Made by a program: the position numbers and the translations under genes. From the NCBI GenBank assembly GCA_001858525.1, contig LAPX01000009.1, positions 3,922-67,921 on the forward strand: a DNA stretch of 64,000 bases, given 5' to 3'. Origin of the DNA: Vampirovibrio chlorellavorus. GTDB lineage: Bacteria; Cyanobacteriota; Vampirovibrionia; Vampirovibrionales; Vampirovibrionaceae. The notes beneath the pieces are model-generated. The model saw only the letters and a list, made by a program, of their open reading frames with translations. It was not told where the DNA came from and did not search any database. Positions 4,522 to 24,254 of this stretch are shown here, piece by piece. Positions within the stretch are counted from its first letter, which is position 1. The number at the start of each line of letters is the position of its first letter.

Positions 4522-5100
4522 TTAGTCTAACACAATAGCCCCACTTCTTAAAAGTTGTATCTCATCATTGGGCTTAACCCAAACCACGGTAGGGGCCACA
4601 CTTTCCAGAATCTCCACGTCCCCATGCACCACAAAATCGACATCATCCCCAAAAGTGTTGTAAACCGCAGTGGCCTCTCTGGCCGGAGGGTCTGTGCCAC
4701 GAGCGGCTCCCAAAGTTAACAGCAATCCGGTGGGGTTGAGTGACAACAAGTCCAGTAGCATGGCATTGTCCGGTTGCATGATTTTGAGGGAGCACAACGG
4801 GCTGAATTCTTCCGGCAATTGTTTACATTTTTCCAGCAAAATAATCAGCGGTCCCGGCCAGTGCTGCCGGATGAGCCGCTCGGCCTCAGTGGGCAATGGC
4901 GCAATAAAGGGATCGAACGCTGGTAAATCCCATCCCATAAGTAATAAAGGTTCTGAGTGTCCCTTGAGGCGGTAAAGGCGTTCCAGGGCGGCCGGGCGAT
5001 CCGGCCTGACTGCCAGAATATAGCCCTCCGGGCCGGGCAGCGCAATCAGTCCGTCCGGCTTTTCCAAATAAGACAAGGCATTCAGCAAAGTCAAATCCAT
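4522..5100 (-). CDS. tsaC: L-threonylcarbamoyladenylate synthase (YrdC/Sua5/TsaC family)
   Basis: YrdC-domain-like sequence of about 190 aa; assignment by family resemblance. Confidence 0.65.
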   Translation of the reverse strand: MDLTLLNALSYLEKPDGLIALPGPEGYILAVRPDRPAALERLYRLKGHSEPLLLMGWDLPAFDPFIAPLPTEAERLIRQHWPGPLIILLEKCKQLPEEFSPLCSLKIMQPDNAMLLDLLSLNPTGLLLTLGAARGTDPPAREATAVYNTFGDDVDFVVHGDVEILESVAPTVVWVKPNDEIQLLRSGAIVLD

Positions 5101-5335
5101 ACTCTTATTTTACCCTTGTTGGGCAAAGCCAAACGGGTGAAGGGGCATGACATTTAATAGGAAATGAGTAGGTCGCACTAAATACGTGCTTTTCGGCGTT
5201 AAATGGGTTGGTGGCGGGTTGTTCCACACCCATTCTACGAACGGCCCTTAAAGGGCGGGGCTTAACAAAATCCCGATTTTTCCGTAGCATAGAGCTATTG
5301 ATTGTGATTATTACGCGTTGCGCAGAGAGTTCCCA

Positions 5336-6349
5336 ATGTCCGAGAAAACCAGGTTATTGATTACCGGCGGCTGTGGCTTTATTGGCAGCTGGTTGATTCG
5401 TCACTTGCTTCAACAGCATGCCGATATCCAGATTACCAACCTGGATTTACTGACCTATGCGGGCAATCCGGACAACCTGAAATCAGTGGCGTCCGATGAG
5501 CGGTACCGATTTGTGCAGGGTGATATTTGCGATGAAGCGTTGGTGTCTCGCCTGATGGCAGAGACCGATGTTTGCGTGAACGTGGCGGCCCAAACCCATG
5601 TGGACCGCAGTATTAGCGGGCCCAGCGAGTTTATTCGCACCAATGTGTGGGGCACACAAGTCCTCCTGGAAGCGGCCAGACTGCGGGCCGTCCAGAAGTT
5701 CGTGCAGGTTTCCACCGATGAGGTGTATGGCAGCATCGAAGGCACGGCCAAGTTTACCGAAGCCTCGCCGCTAGAGCCCAGCAGCCCTTACTCCTCCAGC
5801 AAGGCAGCCGCCGATCTCATCGCCCTTAGCTATTGGAAAACCTACCAGATGCCGGTTTGCGTGACCCGTTGTACCAACAACTACGGCCCCAACCAGTACC
5901 CGGAGAAGTTGATTCCCCTGTTTATCCTGAACGCCTCGGAGAACAAGCAGGTGCCCGTTTACGGGGATGGCTTGAACGTGCGGGACTGGATTCACGTCAA
6001 GGATCACAGCGCCGGGGTGGCCCGGGTGATTTGGGACGGTCGTCCCGGGGAAGTGTACAACCTTGGTTCGGGCAATGAACTGAACAACCTGCAAATCACG
6101 GGCCTCATTCTCAAGGCATTGGGCAAAGATGAGAGCCTGATTCGTTTTGTCACTGACCGACCGGGGCACGATCGGCGCTATGCGCTGGATTCTGGAAAAA
6201 TCGAGCGAGTGTTGGGCTGGAAAGCACAAATTCCTTTTGAGCAAGGTATGGCGGAAACAGTGCAATGGTACCTGGATAATCCCCAATGGGTGGCCAATGT
6301 GCGCCAGCGGGAACCGCAAAGTCCCTTTGCCAGCGCTGCTGCTCAGTAG
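5336..6349 (+). CDS. rfbB: dTDP-glucose 4,6-dehydratase
   Basis: Rossmann 'TGGCGFIGS', a YSSSK catalytic region and the typical RmlB C-terminus. ATG at 5336; the track ORF starts at an upstream TTG. Confidence 0.9.
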   Translation: MSEKTRLLITGGCGFIGSWLIRHLLQQHADIQITNLDLLTYAGNPDNLKSVASDERYRFVQGDICDEALVSRLMAETDVCVNVAAQTHVDRSISGPSEFIRTNVWGTQVLLEAARLRAVQKFVQVSTDEVYGSIEGTAKFTEASPLEPSSPYSSSKAAADLIALSYWKTYQMPVCVTRCTNNYGPNQYPEKLIPLFILNASENKQVPVYGDGLNVRDWIHVKDHSAGVARVIWDGRPGEVYNLGSGNELNNLQITGLILKALGKDESLIRFVTDRPGHDRRYALDSGKIERVLGWKAQIPFEQGMAETVQWYLDNPQWVANVRQREPQSPFASAAAQ

Positions 6350-7248: not shown

Positions 7249-8541
7249 ATGAAAAAACGCGCCTCCGCTTCTTCTAAATCCACCAGCAAATCCGCCAGTG
7301 CCTCGTCCAAAAAGAAAAAAAGTGCGGGTAAACCGGCGAAGGCGGTGTCGTCTAAAGCGTCTACCAAAGGAAAATCCGGGAAGGCCCCCAAGAAACCCTC
7401 GGATTTGACCCCCAGAGTCCTGATTTCTGGGTATTACGGCTTTGATAACCTGGGCGATGAGCTGATTTTAAAAGTGCTGGTGGATGAGTTAAAGGAACGA
7501 GGCGTTAAAATTACCGTTCTGTCCCAGAACCCCAAGAAAACCGCCGCCCAATACGGGGTGGATGCCATCAAGCGCACCAGTTTTATCGATATTGTGGATG
7601 CCCTGGCCTCGGCCAACCTGTTCATCAGCGGTGGCGGGGGATTGTTCCAGGATGCCACCGGACCCATGAGCACGCTTTATTATGGTGGCCTGATTCATCT
7701 GGCTCGTTTTTTCGATGTGCCGGTGGTGTTTTGGGCCCAAGGCGTTGGCCCCCTGCGAAAGTCGCTTTCCAGAAAGATGACCGCTTCCGCTTTGCGTAAA
7801 TGCGAAAAAATTGCGGTGCGCGATGAAAAGAGTGCCCTGCTGGTGGCGGAACTCACCGGAGAAAAACCGGAGATTACCGCTGATCCGGTGTGGTTGCTCA
7901 GAAACGCTTTTACCAAGAGCCTCCCTAGCTTGCCTCCAACGGGCAAGTCTAAAAAATCATCCGAAACCCAGAATGCTGCCAGCTCCTGCGACGCCACGTC
8001 CTCCAAGGTGTGGACGGTGGGTATTTCTCTGCGGCCTTGGCACGAGCTGACCGCTGAACGCTTGAGTGCTTTGGCCGACTGCTTAAATGCCTTGGCCCAG
8101 CAACATGAAGATTCGGTTTGCTTCAAGCTGCTGCCCTTCCAGAAAAAAGAAGATACCGAGTTATTGGAAAACTTTGCCAAACAGCTGAAAGCAACCAGCC
8201 GGGTTTCGGTGACCATAGTTTCCCCAGAGGAGGTTCTGGAAAGCCTGGCCGGCTGCGATGTGGTATTGGGCATGCGATTCCATAGCCTGATTTTGGGCCT
8301 GCTGTTTAATGTTCCCGTCTATGGGCTGGTCTACGATCCCAAAGTGGCCTCTCTGCTGAGCATGTTTAACCTAAAGGGAACCACCATTGCCGGGCTTAAA
8401 GCCATTAGCCCCGATGCGGTCAAAGCGGCCTTTGATGATTATCCAAAGATAGACTTGAAACCCTTTCAGCAGCAATCCAGAAAAAACCTGACCCTTCTGG
8501 AGCGCTTACTGGATATTCCAGCGGCCAAGCTGGCCCTCTAG
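7249..8541 (+). CDS. csaB: Polysaccharide pyruvyl transferase CsaB-like, with a roughly 55-aa Lys/Ser-rich N-terminal extension
   Basis: PS_pyruv_trans hallmarks are present ('ISGYYGFDNLGDELIL', 'FISGGGGLFQD', 'LGMRFHSLI'). The stop/start overlaps rfbD; ATG at 7249 (track ORF from GTG 7237). Confidence 0.7.
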   Translation: MKKRASASSKSTSKSASASSKKKKSAGKPAKAVSSKASTKGKSGKAPKKPSDLTPRVLISGYYGFDNLGDELILKVLVDELKERGVKITVLSQNPKKTAAQYGVDAIKRTSFIDIVDALASANLFISGGGGLFQDATGPMSTLYYGGLIHLARFFDVPVVFWAQGVGPLRKSLSRKMTASALRKCEKIAVRDEKSALLVAELTGEKPEITADPVWLLRNAFTKSLPSLPPTGKSKKSSETQNAASSCDATSSKVWTVGISLRPWHELTAERLSALADCLNALAQQHEDSVCFKLLPFQKKEDTELLENFAKQLKATSRVSVTIVSPEEVLESLAGCDVVLGMRFHSLILGLLFNVPVYGLVYDPKVASLLSMFNLKGTTIAGLKAISPDAVKAAFDDYPKIDLKPFQQQSRKNLTLLERLLDIPAAKLAL

Positions 8542-8736
8542 GTAGAAGCGTCGCTTAATCCGACCTGGATGGCTGGTTCAGGCGGCTTTGTTTTGCTCGC
8601 ATCAACCCGCATCAAAGGGATTTGCGCCTAAAATAATTGCACATTCTGTGATTTTGAATTAATTTGGTAATGTTTGGTTCGTCACTTTCGATTTTTGGTT
8701 TGATGGGTCCTAAATTTTAAACGGGAATTTTTTGAG

Positions 8737-15978: not shown

Positions 15979-16884
15979 TTACTGTATGACTCGGGAAAAT
16001 CCAGCCTGAATGGCCGACTCACTAAAGCCGTGCTGCTTCAGAATGATGGATAATTCCAGGGGGTGACCGCCCTGTTTTAAATTTTCATTCAGCCATACCT
16101 GCCAATGGTGCGGTAAGTCTTGGACATCCATGGGCATGTCTCTATCCAGCAAGTGCTTTGCCAGCACCGCATCCATTTGCCCCTGATCGATCAGATGCTG
16201 CACCACGGCGTGCCCGGATCGGGGGACCGGATATAAGGTGCAATTGGGCAAAGCGCCGTATCGATGAGCGTGCAACACATCCAGATTGACCGACTCTGGG
16301 GCGTTGCCATCCGGCTGGGTGCCGAAAATCACCCGCAAGTCACAAGTGGACTGGCGCTCTCGAGATAATTGGGGTAGATCCGCATACAGCGACGGCGGCG
16401 GATGGTCGTGCAAATCCAGCATAACCCGCAACCAGCGCCGATCGTGATACGTCAAGGCATGTTCCACATCCAGAAAGGACAACGGGCCAAAGGCTACAAT
16501 GCGCTTCACGTTCAGTAAAATTCCAAACAGAATGGCCGCATAAGCCCCCATGGACTGCCCGATGGTAATCACCGAGCTGGGCTGAATCCGAGTGATCAGT
16601 TGTTGAAGGGAATCGGCCACTTCATCCACATGGCTGCCCAAACCGGGAATTTCCCGGTGATACCAGCTATTGGTGCAATCTCGTACCAGAATGCGGTTAA
16701 AAACACTTTGCGTGGTGGCTTCCAGCTTTTTGACCCGACCGTAAAAGTCGAAAGCAGGCCGTTGCTCCCAATTCACAAACCCAAAGCTGATAATTAACGG
16801 CTGCCCCGAATGGATGGTATCCACCAATACGGAAGCCTCCGTGTTTTCAACCTGCGCATTGGTCAGTGGTGTTACGGGGATCAC
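15979..16884 (-). CDS. Alpha/beta-hydrolase-like protein (GQSMG nucleophile elbow)
   Basis: A GxSxG motif sits in an alpha/beta-type context; the C-terminal roughly 100 aa are of unknown function. Confidence 0.45.
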   Translation of the reverse strand: MIPVTPLTNAQVENTEASVLVDTIHSGQPLIISFGFVNWEQRPAFDFYGRVKKLEATTQSVFNRILVRDCTNSWYHREIPGLGSHVDEVADSLQQLITRIQPSSVITIGQSMGAYAAILFGILLNVKRIVAFGPLSFLDVEHALTYHDRRWLRVMLDLHDHPPPSLYADLPQLSRERQSTCDLRVIFGTQPDGNAPESVNLDVLHAHRYGALPNCTLYPVPRSGHAVVQHLIDQGQMDAVLAKHLLDRDMPMDVQDLPHHWQVWLNENLKQGGHPLELSIILKQHGFSESAIQAGFSRVIQ

Positions 16885-18145: not shown

Positions 18146-18640
18146 TTAACCGTTGATGGCTGTAATCAGGCCATCTTCCACTAAAATTTCAGCGTTTTGC
18201 AGATGATCGTACAAGTTATCGCCAACCCGCAGTTCCACGGTGTTTTCCAGCATGCCGGTCACAATGAACTGTCCGTTCTCAATATTGTCCAGATTGCCCA
18301 ATTCGGAGGAAATCTGCATTTTAACCGAAGCCATCTGGCTGCGTTTTTGCTGGGCTTCCTGATTCAGCTGTTGCAATTGGGCTTGCACGTTTTGGCCTTG
18401 CTGGGCCACTTTTTCCAGCTGTTGCAAGGAGTACTGGTACTGCGCTTCCAGTTGCTGCATTTGGGTGTCAATCAACTTGAGTTCGTTGTCCAGTTCGCTT
18501 TTGGCGCGGGTACGGAAGTTGTCGGTGACCTTGGTTTTTACGGTCACTTGGCGTTTGAGTTGAATGCTGGCTTGGGAAGTCATAGGGGCCTCTGTTGCTT
18601 TTTCCATAATGGACTGCATGGGGATAGAACCTTTCGACAT
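18146..18640 (-). CDS. YlqD-family protein; the track ORF extends upstream to 18868 but the coding part is probably only the C-terminal 130-165 aa
   Basis: A coiled-coil region then 'GQFIVTGMLENTVELRVGDNLYDH' matches the YlqD family. It lies immediately upstream of rimM as in Firmicutes. Confidence 0.5.
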   Translation of the reverse strand: MSKGSIPMQSIMEKATEAPMTSQASIQLKRQVTVKTKVTDNFRTRAKSELDNELKLIDTQMQQLEAQYQYSLQQLEKVAQQGQNVQAQLQQLNQEAQQKRSQMASVKMQISSELGNLDNIENGQFIVTGMLENTVELRVGDNLYDHLQNAEILVEDGLITAING

Positions 18641-18824
18641 TAATTGAGTCCATTCTAACAGAACCGGCTTTGAAAGTGGGATTCCTCGCACTGGAAATAA
18701 ACATGCGGGGCAGCGGTTGATGATGGCCGACCACTGTGCCAGAATAAACGCATTCCTCTCAAGTGCAAGATCCGATTCCAATCCCCTTCCACCCGTCGCC
18801 CTGACGCAATAAAGGTCCTCTGCC

Positions 18825-19202
18825 ATGACCCAGATTACCGTTCTGTATTCCAAAATCCACCGAGCCACCGTGACTGATGCCCAGCTGCACTACGAAGGCA
18901 GCCTGACCATTGATCATCATCTGATGCAACAGGCAGGATTGGTGGAGTATCAACAGATTGATGTGTACAATATTACCAATGGCGAGCGATTTACCACCTA
19001 CGCCATTGTAGGAGAACCGCATACCGGCATTATTCAGGTCAATGGCGCCGCGGCCCACAAGGCCCGCACCGGGGATCTTATTATCATTGCCTCCTACGCC
19101 AACATTCCTCAGGAGGAAGGCCCCTTGTGGAAACCCAAGTTGGTCTTTGTGGACCGGCAAAACAAGCCCTCCGCTGATAAACCGGCCATGTTACCGGTTT
19201 AA
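18825..19202 (+). CDS. panD: Aspartate 1-decarboxylase
   Basis: 'SKIHRATVTDA.LHYEGS.TID' with the pyruvoyl Ser25 context. Confidence 0.9.
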   Translation: MTQITVLYSKIHRATVTDAQLHYEGSLTIDHHLMQQAGLVEYQQIDVYNITNGERFTTYAIVGEPHTGIIQVNGAAAHKARTGDLIIIASYANIPQEEGPLWKPKLVFVDRQNKPSADKPAMLPV

Positions 19203-19215
19203 AAATTTACAAGAA

Positions 19216-19370
19216 GGTGTTACCCCAAACCAGCCCTCTGGCTGCTTTTTGTGGCTCGATTTCCCTCATAGAAATAGAGGAATGCTCAGTCCAAGGCTTC
19301 CCTCGCTTTTTCTATAATAAGCAAACTATTTAAACAAAAAACCGCCAGAGGGCTGGTTTGGGGTAACACC
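19216..19370. repeat. Perfect 27-bp inverted repeat (19216-19242 and 19344-19370) flanking a roughly 100-bp core; a MITE-like element or giant bidirectional terminator hairpin
   Basis: GGTGTTACCCCAAACCAGCCCTCTGGC and its exact reverse complement were read directly from the sequence, between the convergent panD and oxidoreductase genes. Confidence 0.6.
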
Positions 19371-19378
19371 GGCTCACA

Positions 19379-20926
19379 TTAGCAAGGAGCGGGGCTGCTG
19401 CTTTGACGAAGCGCTTCCACAATGGCCTCATCGGCTTTGAGTAGCGAACTGGTTTCAATTTGCGCTGCGCTCCACGTGGCTTTCCCTTCAATGCGCAATG
19501 CGCCGCCTTGGCGTTGGGCCAGGCAAGCTTGCACCTCAGCAATCCGCTGGGTGGCAACATCCAGTAGTGATTGACCAGATTGGCTGGCCAGTGCTGCGGC
19601 CACCCCCACGCCTTCGCCCAGCAGGGCATTGTGTTGCACGATGCGCCCTGCACCTTGCTCAATGGGAGAATATCCGGCTGAACGGCTGACAAAAGCAAAA
19701 TTCTGGAGGGCCTGAGTGGCCGGTAGAGCCACCCCTAAACCTACATTGAAGATAGGCTTTGGCAAATGCTCACCGGGGTATAGCTTCCACAACTGGGTAC
19801 CCCGCAGATCCAGCCAGTAAGAGAATGTGCCGATGGCCTTTTCGGGTGGGACGCCCCCTTCAATGGCTTGCCGGGCGGTCAGAGTCTCTAAGGAAAGCAG
19901 GTTGACGGTCTGGCGCACATAAAGCTCGGAGGGGGGGATGACAGAGACATGCGGAAACGGGCCTTTCTCTTTGAGGTAGCGTTCAAAGTGGCGCATTTCC
20001 TGTTGTAGCAATGCCGGGGTGGGGCCGCCTTGTGATAGGGCGATCAAGGCTCTCAATTCCAGATTCAGCGCATTAACCTGGGCCACCAGCCCATTAAAAC
20101 CCAGGCTGCCATCCCTGAGGCGAGAAACATTCCCCCCATCAATGAATATATCGGCGTTGGCGTAACTGGCCGCGGATCCGTGACGCCATAGGTGGTAATC
20201 AATCCCGATGACCGGGTTCAAAATATCCAAATAATCCTGATCCGGCGGGGCAAAGGTGGGTCGGGTGATGTATTCAGCCCGAAGCTCTGGGGGATGATAA
20301 GGTAAGGCCTCTTCTAAAATGCGGGGCAACTCTGGGTTTTGACGCAACCGGGCCTCAAAGGCCTGAAATTCGTCCACCGACAAGCCGGTGAGCCGAAATA
20401 CCGGAGAAACGCCTAAAAAGTTCTGGTCGGCTCCCAAAATCCCGCCCAAGCCTTCAATAAAGGGTAATTCCAGCGAACGGGCCACATCCGCATCGGGGGT
20501 GGCGTCAATCACCACCAAGGGATGTAATACTTCAGGATTCAGGGCGTCACAGGTGCCATTTGGGTGTGTGAGCACAGCTTGCTCTGGAAAGCCCTCCGGG
20601 TTCAGGATCAGTTGAACTTCCACCCCGCTGATCACCTTGATATGGGCCTCAGCCAGCATGGCTTCAAGCACGGCATCAGCCTTGTCCGGGTTTAAAGCCA
20701 CCCGAATAAAACCACAGCGGTTTAAAAACTCTTGAAACAGCCCGCAGAGGAGATCCGGGGTGATGTCCATGTATGATAAGCCCCCTCGAACGGAGAGCCC
20801 ACCCAAGGGGCCGGTGCTGCGTCTTGCCAAAATAGTTCTTGCTCCAGCCCGGCTGGCCGAAACGGCGGTCAAGATGCTTTCAACCTCATCTCCAACCACC
20901 AGCACCTGGCATTGTGTAGTGCTCAT
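19379..20926 (-). CDS. FAD-dependent oxidoreductase-like protein (PF12831-like) with a degenerate dinucleotide-binding motif
   Basis: The N-terminus 'VLVVGDEVESILTAVSASRAGARTILA' resembles a GxGxxG Rossmann start but the glycines are replaced. Confidence 0.45.
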   Translation of the reverse strand: MSTTQCQVLVVGDEVESILTAVSASRAGARTILARRSTGPLGGLSVRGGLSYMDITPDLLCGLFQEFLNRCGFIRVALNPDKADAVLEAMLAEAHIKVISGVEVQLILNPEGFPEQAVLTHPNGTCDALNPEVLHPLVVIDATPDADVARSLELPFIEGLGGILGADQNFLGVSPVFRLTGLSVDEFQAFEARLRQNPELPRILEEALPYHPPELRAEYITRPTFAPPDQDYLDILNPVIGIDYHLWRHGSAASYANADIFIDGGNVSRLRDGSLGFNGLVAQVNALNLELRALIALSQGGPTPALLQQEMRHFERYLKEKGPFPHVSVIPPSELYVRQTVNLLSLETLTARQAIEGGVPPEKAIGTFSYWLDLRGTQLWKLYPGEHLPKPIFNVGLGVALPATQALQNFAFVSRSAGYSPIEQGAGRIVQHNALLGEGVGVAAALASQSGQSLLDVATQRIAEVQACLAQRQGGALRIEGKATWSAAQIETSSLLKADEAIVEALRQSSSPAPC

Positions 20927-24124: not shown

Positions 24125-24217
24125 TGAATACAATTCAAGGTGAGGTTACCATTACAAACGCCTTGTACCGGTAGTCTCACCCTAATTCTATAACTATTAC
24201 CAGTCCTCTAAAAAGTA

Positions 24218-24254
24218 CCCCCGCCAACCGAAGTTGACGGGGGCTTTTTTATGG
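24218..24254. terminator. Bidirectional rho-independent terminator
   Basis: Hairpin CCCCCGCCAACCGAAGTTGACGGGGG followed by CTTTTTTAT, with AAAAAG on the other side. It lies between convergent genes. Confidence 0.6.

Follow-up and report, generated by a model that had tools for sequence, protein, structure and literature searches.

What is an inverted repeat of 155 nt with almost perfect arms doing between two genes that converge on it, and is it a small mobile element, a structured RNA, or a transcription terminator that has outgrown its usual dimensions? The question is raised by the spacer between panD and an FAD-dependent oxidoreductase gene in the 64-kb stretch of DNA analyzed here (the window), whose host is a Vampirovibrio relative. 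The Vampirovibrionia are a non-photosynthetic cyanobacterial sister group, poorly studied and represented mostly by metagenome-assembled genomes. The oxidoreductase is 85% identical to its Vampirovibrio chlorellavorus homolog, and its homologs are found in Vampirovibrio, Vampirovibrionales, and Melainabacteria assemblies. The profile matches of the two genes (Table 1) bear out the convergent pair named in a first-pass annotation of the locus; they are separated by a spacer of 176 nt, in which 13 nt separate the stop codon of panD from the element and a further 8 nt lie between the element and the stop codon of the oxidoreductase.

The 27-mer GGTGTTACCCCAAACCAGCCCTCTGGC at 19216–19242 recurs as its exact reverse complement at 19344–19370, as had been described, and none of 100 dinucleotide-preserving shuffles of the window yielded a matching 27-mer repeat, even with up to three mismatches allowed. 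The additional pairing of about 10 bp that had been noticed is also present, such that each arm reaches 37 nt at 95% complementarity, with 81 nt between the arms. No other long near-perfect inverted repeat occurs in the 64-kb window, the runners-up being 71–84% complementary. The arms have a GC content of 54%, and each contains the small palindrome CCAG-CCCT-CTGG. A sequence scan detected neither a promoter-like site nor an ORF in the core, whose own predicted fold is a hairpin of low stability (z −0.5 and −0.8, not significant); across the whole element, the longest open stretch is about 43 codons and lacks a credible start, and no promoter-like site was detected in or beside it. The small plus-strand hairpin of the left arm is the sole terminator-like site inside the element that was flagged by the scan, whereas its mirror counterpart in the right arm is weaker and was left unflagged. 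A terminus or dif-like site was also considered for the palindrome and was ruled out by the absence of a GC-skew switch near 19 kb and by an architecture that is not dif-like.

Table 1. Features of the panD/oxidoreductase junction in the window; L005 is a sister lineage and L002 a conspecific strain
Feature	Positions	Strand	Description
panD (aspartate 1-decarboxylase)	18825–19202	+	left flank; TIGR00223 at 2e-41, PF02261
T-rich tail TTCTTGTAAATTT, running on into TTAA	19203–19215	-	comes after the foot of the large hairpin as read in the sense of the oxidoreductase gene
Left arm	19216–19252		37 nt, first 27 perfect against the right arm
Outer stem, left half	19217–19229		GTGTTACCCCAAA; 12/13 identical to the L005 left stem
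Inner lineage-specific segment	19230–19356		127 nt; start CCAGCCCTCTGGC, end GCCAGAGGGCTGG
Small hairpin CAGCC-CTCT-GGCTG, then CTTTTTGT	19231–19252	+	inward from panD
Core	19253–19333		81 nt, 40% GC (window 52%), AT-rich
Right arm	19334–19370		37 nt; holds both L002 substitutions
Mirror small hairpin CCAGCCCTCTGGCGG, then TTTTTTGT	19334–19356	-	inward from the oxidoreductase; read from the sequence
Outer stem, right half	19357–19369		TTTGGGGTAACAC; 11/13 identical to the L005 right stem, followed by flank CGGCTCACA
FAD-dependent oxidoreductase	19379–20926	-	right flank; PF12831
Candidate element ends			GGTGTTACCCCAAACC or CCAGCCCTCTGGC

The element is also present in L002, an independently assembled ENA metagenome contig of the same species, which differs from the window at 79 of 2,681 nt (about 3%); its separate assembly there rules out an assembly artefact. 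Two substitutions distinguish the L002 copy, 19341 A>C and 19362 G>T, of which the latter disrupts a pair of the stem; no compensating change accompanies either of them. The whole spacer thus differs at 2 of 176 nt (1.1%), compared with 0.8–5.2% in the flanking genes. As judged from these aligned sequences, the element drifts between strains at about the local background, a roughly neutral rate, and the comparison gives no sign of selection on pairing. In the same alignment, the 3′ part of the oxidoreductase gene (window 19379–19905) is 4.7% divergent from L002, as against 0.8% in the adjacent panD, and at several sites L002 matches L005 and not the window, which suggests either rapid evolution of the C-terminal tail or a tract of recombination that ends near the element.

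Transcribed from either strand, the element is predicted to fold into one long hairpin, at −78.8 kcal/mol (z −9.5) for the plus strand and −89.7 kcal/mol (z −10.1) for the minus strand, and the region folded as DNA has a z of −8.2. The folding that the first-pass annotation had recommended agrees with its view of the stem as far longer than that of a normal terminator, at about 37 bp compared with the 12 bp of a site at 24244–24217. The latter is the clearest conventional terminator at 10–30 kb of the window (24217–24244, minus strand), in which a GC-rich stem is capped by a TTCG tetraloop and followed by ACTTTTT.

The extreme predicted stability of the hairpin on both strands (z about −10) is the part of the earlier suggestion of a structured RNA that stood, and it would suit a functional RNA, kept by selection for pairing, in the 3′ region that both convergent mRNAs have in common. 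This could be a small RNA or a long hairpin whose cleavage by RNase III determines the 3′ ends or the stability of the mRNAs. Such an RNA would likewise suit arms that are perfect over 27 bp despite strong divergence of the flanks from L005, and a precedent exists in the transcript hairpins of the MITE-type Correia elements, which are RNase III substrates (PMC10969869, PMC2649163). Against such an RNA, a search of Rfam over 18500–20000 at E values up to 10 gave no family and only two chance matches, at 23.1 and 22.3 bits against gathering thresholds of 78 and 70 (E 0.17 and 0.16), both to implausible families, one of which is archaeal and the other from Plasmodium. Moreover, no covariation was found in the stem, and the lack of a promoter-like site, the lack of significant structure in the core itself, the restriction to one species, and the uncompensated pair-breaking change in L002 all weigh in the same direction, and we regard a selected RNA as unlikely.

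The history of the junction is best read from its relatives, among which the gene order era, two hypothetical genes, oxidoreductase, panD, ylqD, rimM, and trmD is kept and the length of the panD/oxidoreductase spacer is highly variable. The stop codons overlap by 4 nt (a spacer of −4 nt) in V. chlorellavorus (L003 and L004) and in L029/L030; unrelated sequence fills spacers of 27–28 nt in L006/L034, L032, L036, and L037 and of 59 nt in L031; the spacer of L005 (GCA_027448865.1) measures 65 nt; and that of L007/L008 reaches 659 nt with an extra ORF. The junction is thus an indel hot spot among close relatives. The element is confined to one species and is absent in all other Vampirovibrio relatives compared, and no intermediates between its long hairpin and a short one were found, the other contigs with PanD P0122 having a 28-nt spacer. 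The overlaps of 4 nt lie at 5545–5548 in L003, 2397–2400 in L004, and 3375–3378 in L029, and leave no room for a terminator.

The comparison with L005, whose oxidoreductase is 85% identical to that of the window, is the most informative. Its spacer can be written as AAAAACGACAACAA-GTGTTGCCCCAAA-AAGGCGCCAAATGCCC-TTTGGGGGAATAC-CGGCTCACA and contains a hairpin of 42 nt at the position of the element. Homology between the two loci covers the right flank CGGCTCACA (9/9), the outer 13 bp of each arm (12/13 and 11/13), and the 3′ terminus of the oxidoreductase gene, while the left flank is identical at 8 of 14 positions; where the window holds the inner 127 nt, L005 has a loop of 16 nt. On the oxidoreductase strand of L005, an 11-bp GC-rich stem followed by UUGUUGUCGUUUUUUU gives the predicted fold the shape of an intrinsic terminator, and the L005 tail TTGTTGTCGTTTTTTT stands at the place of the T-rich tail of the window. 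The short hairpin has the usual terminator dimensions and, taken alone, is not significantly stable (z −1.2). Since the outer 13-bp stem and the tail are common to L005, the outer part of what appears to be a terminal repeat would be an older terminator-like stem, and the new part would be the approximately 127 nt within it. The outer stem probably predates the inner segment at the locus, and its sequence looks like that of an intrinsic terminator. L005 is the only relative with alignable flanks and the only one with the short form; with that single relative, parsimony is indifferent as to which of the two forms is the older.

The reading that we place first, with a probability of roughly 0.45, takes the element for an older hairpin of terminator type, downstream of the FAD-oxidoreductase gene, that has been enlarged in this one species and is present once. 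The ancestor shared with L005 would have carried a short GC-rich hairpin with the stem GTGTTRCCCCAAA / TTTGGGGNAAYAC and, on the oxidoreductase strand, a T-rich sequence after it; in the lineage of the window, about 127 nt with inverted ends of their own would now lie inside this old hairpin, in such a manner that the pairing of the old stem continues unbroken into a stem of about 37 bp around the 81-nt AT-rich core. The rebuilding would have been recent, with one arm probably copied from the other by inverted duplication or by template switching at a quasi-palindrome; alternatively, the hairpin may have been replaced with palindromic DNA or converted from another copy. Arms that are perfect over 27 bp, yet diverge between strains at a roughly neutral rate, argue for a recent rebuild rather than a selected relic. 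Furthermore, the left flank matches L005 at only 8 of 14 positions, so arms inherited unchanged should show several mismatches, whereas the 27 bp are perfect.

In template switching at a quasi-palindrome, imperfect inverted repeats are perfected or extended during replication, usually over a few to tens of bases. The element resembles the products of this process in its perfect 27-bp arms, which continue an apparently older imperfect stem without a break, in the absence of a duplication, and in its single copy; it differs from them in its 81-nt core, which they do not account for. Template switching alone makes no new sequence, and the origin of the core, for which no donor sequence was found within the window, counts against the enlarged terminator. 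The loop of L005 showed no significant similarity to the inner segment; in the comparison of AAAAAGGCGCCA from the loop with AAAAAACCGCCA from the right arm, 81 of 500 shuffles did as well.

The enlarged hairpin probably still separates both transcription units. A transcript of the oxidoreductase gene would form the long hairpin followed by UUCUUGUAAAUUUUU and would stop before it enters panD in antisense, and a transcript of panD would meet the inward-facing small hairpin CAGCC-CUCU-GGCUG followed by CUUUUUGU (19231–19252) in the left arm. The perfect duplex of 27–37 bp would also be a candidate substrate for RNase III. In common with intrinsic terminators, the element lies just past the stop codons, with the base of a GC-rich stem-loop 8 nt past that of the oxidoreductase and 13 nt past that of panD. 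The sequence after the stem is T-rich in the sense of the oxidoreductase: the minus strand continues with UUCUUGU (5 of 7 U) and AAAUUUUU, and the plus strand with GGCUCACA, which contains no U-tract. Unlike intrinsic terminators, with their stems of 5–14 bp and loops of 3–8 nt, it has a stem of about 37 bp and an interior of 81 nt; the large hairpin is outside the usual dimensions, and only the small inner hairpin (19231–19244, then CUUUUUGU) passes the terminator scan. Further observations count against a terminator. Terminator-like sites are not enriched in this genome, with 29 found compared with 26.1 expected from shuffles, and the genes of V. chlorellavorus overlap by 4 nt with no spacer, which makes a terminator at this junction dispensable.

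The MITE-like look of the element, in its size, inverted ends, and AT-rich core, also counts against the enlarged terminator; the first-pass annotation had proposed a MITE or other small non-autonomous mobile element. MITEs are defined as short (<500 bp), non-coding elements with terminal inverted repeats of about 4–30 bp and flanking direct repeats that fade with age (PMC10969869). The element is non-coding at 155 nt, and its terminal inverted repeats are perfect over 27 nt and 95% complementary over 37 nt; flanking direct repeats amount to 0 nt. Together with the non-coding core of 40% GC and the very stable predicted fold, the size and the terminal repeats fit that description, and most relatives lack the element at the same junction, as an insertion would give. 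What would be at hand is a low-copy or orphan MITE, mobilized by a transposase that acts in trans from another place in the genome and comprising either the whole 155 nt, with L005 as an internally deleted, decayed copy, or only the inner 127 nt, which would have landed in the terminator hairpin. Bacterial families range down to one copy per genome (MITEAba12, 1–22 copies; PMC10969869), and an IS transposase gene lies near the locus in L005.

Several results stand against such an insertion. The target-site duplication for which the first-pass annotation had proposed to look was absent, with 0 nt at the boundaries 19216/19370, 19217/19369, 19230/19356, and 19227/19359, and hence at both the outer and the inner ends. 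The comparison with empty sites gave a mixed result, in which the inner 127 nt are absent in relatives while L005 retains the outer 13 bp of each arm; because these outer 13 bp and both flanks are already present in L005, that lineage offers no clean empty site. In addition, remnants of the 16-nt loop that interrupt the pairing would be expected after an insertion there, and none is seen; without leftover loop bases and without a target-site duplication, copying of an arm fits better than insertion into a loop.

The search for further copies covered, for the host genome, the 64-kb window, which is about 2% of a genome of some 3 Mb (a rough guess, based on a relative with a contig of 2.87 Mb). 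The window contains no further fragment of the element longer than 16 nt, and the 27-mer with up to three mismatches has no second copy there or in L003–L008. The outer and inner 13-mers with up to two mismatches likewise revealed no recurring family and nothing resembling the terminal repeats, whether in the rest of the window or across the loci of relatives (L003–L008, about 100 kb). With only 64 kb of about 3 Mb covered, a family of tens of copies could escape. Beyond the host, the 20-mer CCCCAAACCAGCCCTCTGGC, which spans the junction of outer and inner parts and would miss a stand-alone inner element, gave no true copy in 185,579 species genomes, a set that does not include the host assembly; its lone match, in an Omnitrophota MAG, concerned one arm inside a coding region and was set aside as chance. 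Metagenome contigs searched with the pattern CCAGCCCTCTGGCNNNTTTTTG gave 20 one-arm matches, all without the outer stem, the core, and the second arm. They come from unrelated organisms and consist of short GC hairpins with T-runs; no Rfam family was found at these sites, and a hairpin of terminator type, CCAGCCCTCTGG(C) with a T-run after it, recurs among them. In viral contigs, the inner pattern had no matches and the outer 17-mer one chance match in a coding region, and sensitive blastn matched nothing in plasmids or phages. Frame +0 across the element (one of six frames) was also compared as a peptide with 1.84 billion proteins, in order to catch spurious ORFs called over other copies of the element, and no copy came to light there either; the single match, P0213, was rejected as eukaryotic, with seven near-identical repeats that inflate the E-value and with DNA dissimilar to the element. 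In the literature, no paper was found that names both Vampirovibrio and MITEs.

Paralogous copies, which the first-pass annotation had expected a mobile element to show, are therefore missing from the window, the loci of relatives, and the genome, metagenome, viral, plasmid, and phage collections searched. Its mobile-element proposal is borne out in structure and in the absence of the element from most relatives, and runs counter to the lack of a second copy and of a duplication and to the outer stem in L005. The situation that it had named as speaking against its own reading, a single copy without paralogues that is a simple terminator in relatives, is nearly what was found, over 64 kb of the host and with one relative carrying a short hairpin. 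We consider a low-copy or orphan MITE possible and rank it second, after the enlarged terminator and ahead of the structured RNA. The transposase gene near the L005 locus (4923–5828, DDE_Tnp_1/DUF772) is located downstream of trmD; no arm motifs were found near it, and its positional counterpart in the window is a gene of 301 aa (15979–16884) to which the analysis assigned no function.

Each 37-nt arm, with its small palindrome, also resembles a REP unit, and two such units in inverted orientation between convergent genes have the architecture of a REP doublet of the REPIN or BIME type, spread by a RAYT transposase. The unrelated metagenome contig L025 contains an analogous inverted pair of units that have the same small hairpin at their center. 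REPs usually number more than 100 copies per genome (PMC2817692); at 100 copies in about 3 Mb, about two further units are expected in 64 kb, and none was found even with two mismatches in 13 nt, an outcome that has a chance of about 12%. The 81-nt linker is also long for a REPIN, and such a doublet, which comes last in our ranking after the structured RNA, seems very improbable.

The pair in L025 (about 8515–8600) consists of two facing copies of a unit some 40 nt long, ...GCGTCYTGGASTGCG(C/T)CCAGCCCTCTGGCGCTTTTTTG, which was found dispersed in the peat and soil metagenome contigs L009, L013, L014, L019, L020, L022, L024, L025, and L028. The unit has differing flanks and is found on two contigs of one sample, and Rfam gave no match at its sites. 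In appearance it is a repeat family, of either the REP/REPIN or the terminator type, that belongs to an unrelated bacterium from soil.

Among known systems, the element resembles the Correia elements (CREE) of Neisseria and ERIC in its size class of about 100–200 nt, its long terminal repeats, its non-coding core, its intergenic position near gene ends, and its hairpin transcripts. Correia elements make a TA duplication on insertion. Unlike them, with more than 120 copies per genome (PMC10969869), the element has one copy in the data searched, no duplication, and no homolog, and, unlike Correia and ERIC, part of its terminal repeat is already at the locus in a sister lineage. With SPRITE, a terminator-like small repeat (PMC10969869) compared here by description only, it has in common arms with a small hairpin and a T-run and a T-rich tail on one strand; it differs from that dispersed, multi-copy repeat of one genome in that no second copy was detected. 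The element is thus not filed with the Correia or ERIC MITEs or with SPRITE; it appears to be built on an intrinsic terminator, although its own dimensions are not those of a normal one, and the feature is ordinary in kind.

The enlarged terminator would have little importance beyond the panD/oxidoreductase locus, where it would be a natural example of a short terminator hairpin grown into a long perfect palindrome. A locus of this kind can mimic a MITE, which calls for caution with repeat finders that use terminal repeats alone. A bolder account, which appears quite improbable to us, would be a new palindromic mobile family in the Vampirovibrionia that targets the loops of terminator hairpins, makes no duplication, and seamlessly extends the stem of the host, so that the terminator would be rebuilt as a long RNase III-sensitive hairpin. 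If more copies exist in the full genome, the element would represent a new small mobile family in this group, with the loop of a hairpin as an unusual target.

At the panD/oxidoreductase junction, the 659-nt insert occupies 5543–6201 in L007 and 1996–2654 in L008, which belong to a 70%-identity relative (Vampirovibrio sp., GCA_041737375.1); in L007, it carries a called ORF of 187 aa (5667–6230) that has no Pfam match and overlaps the 3′ end of panD.
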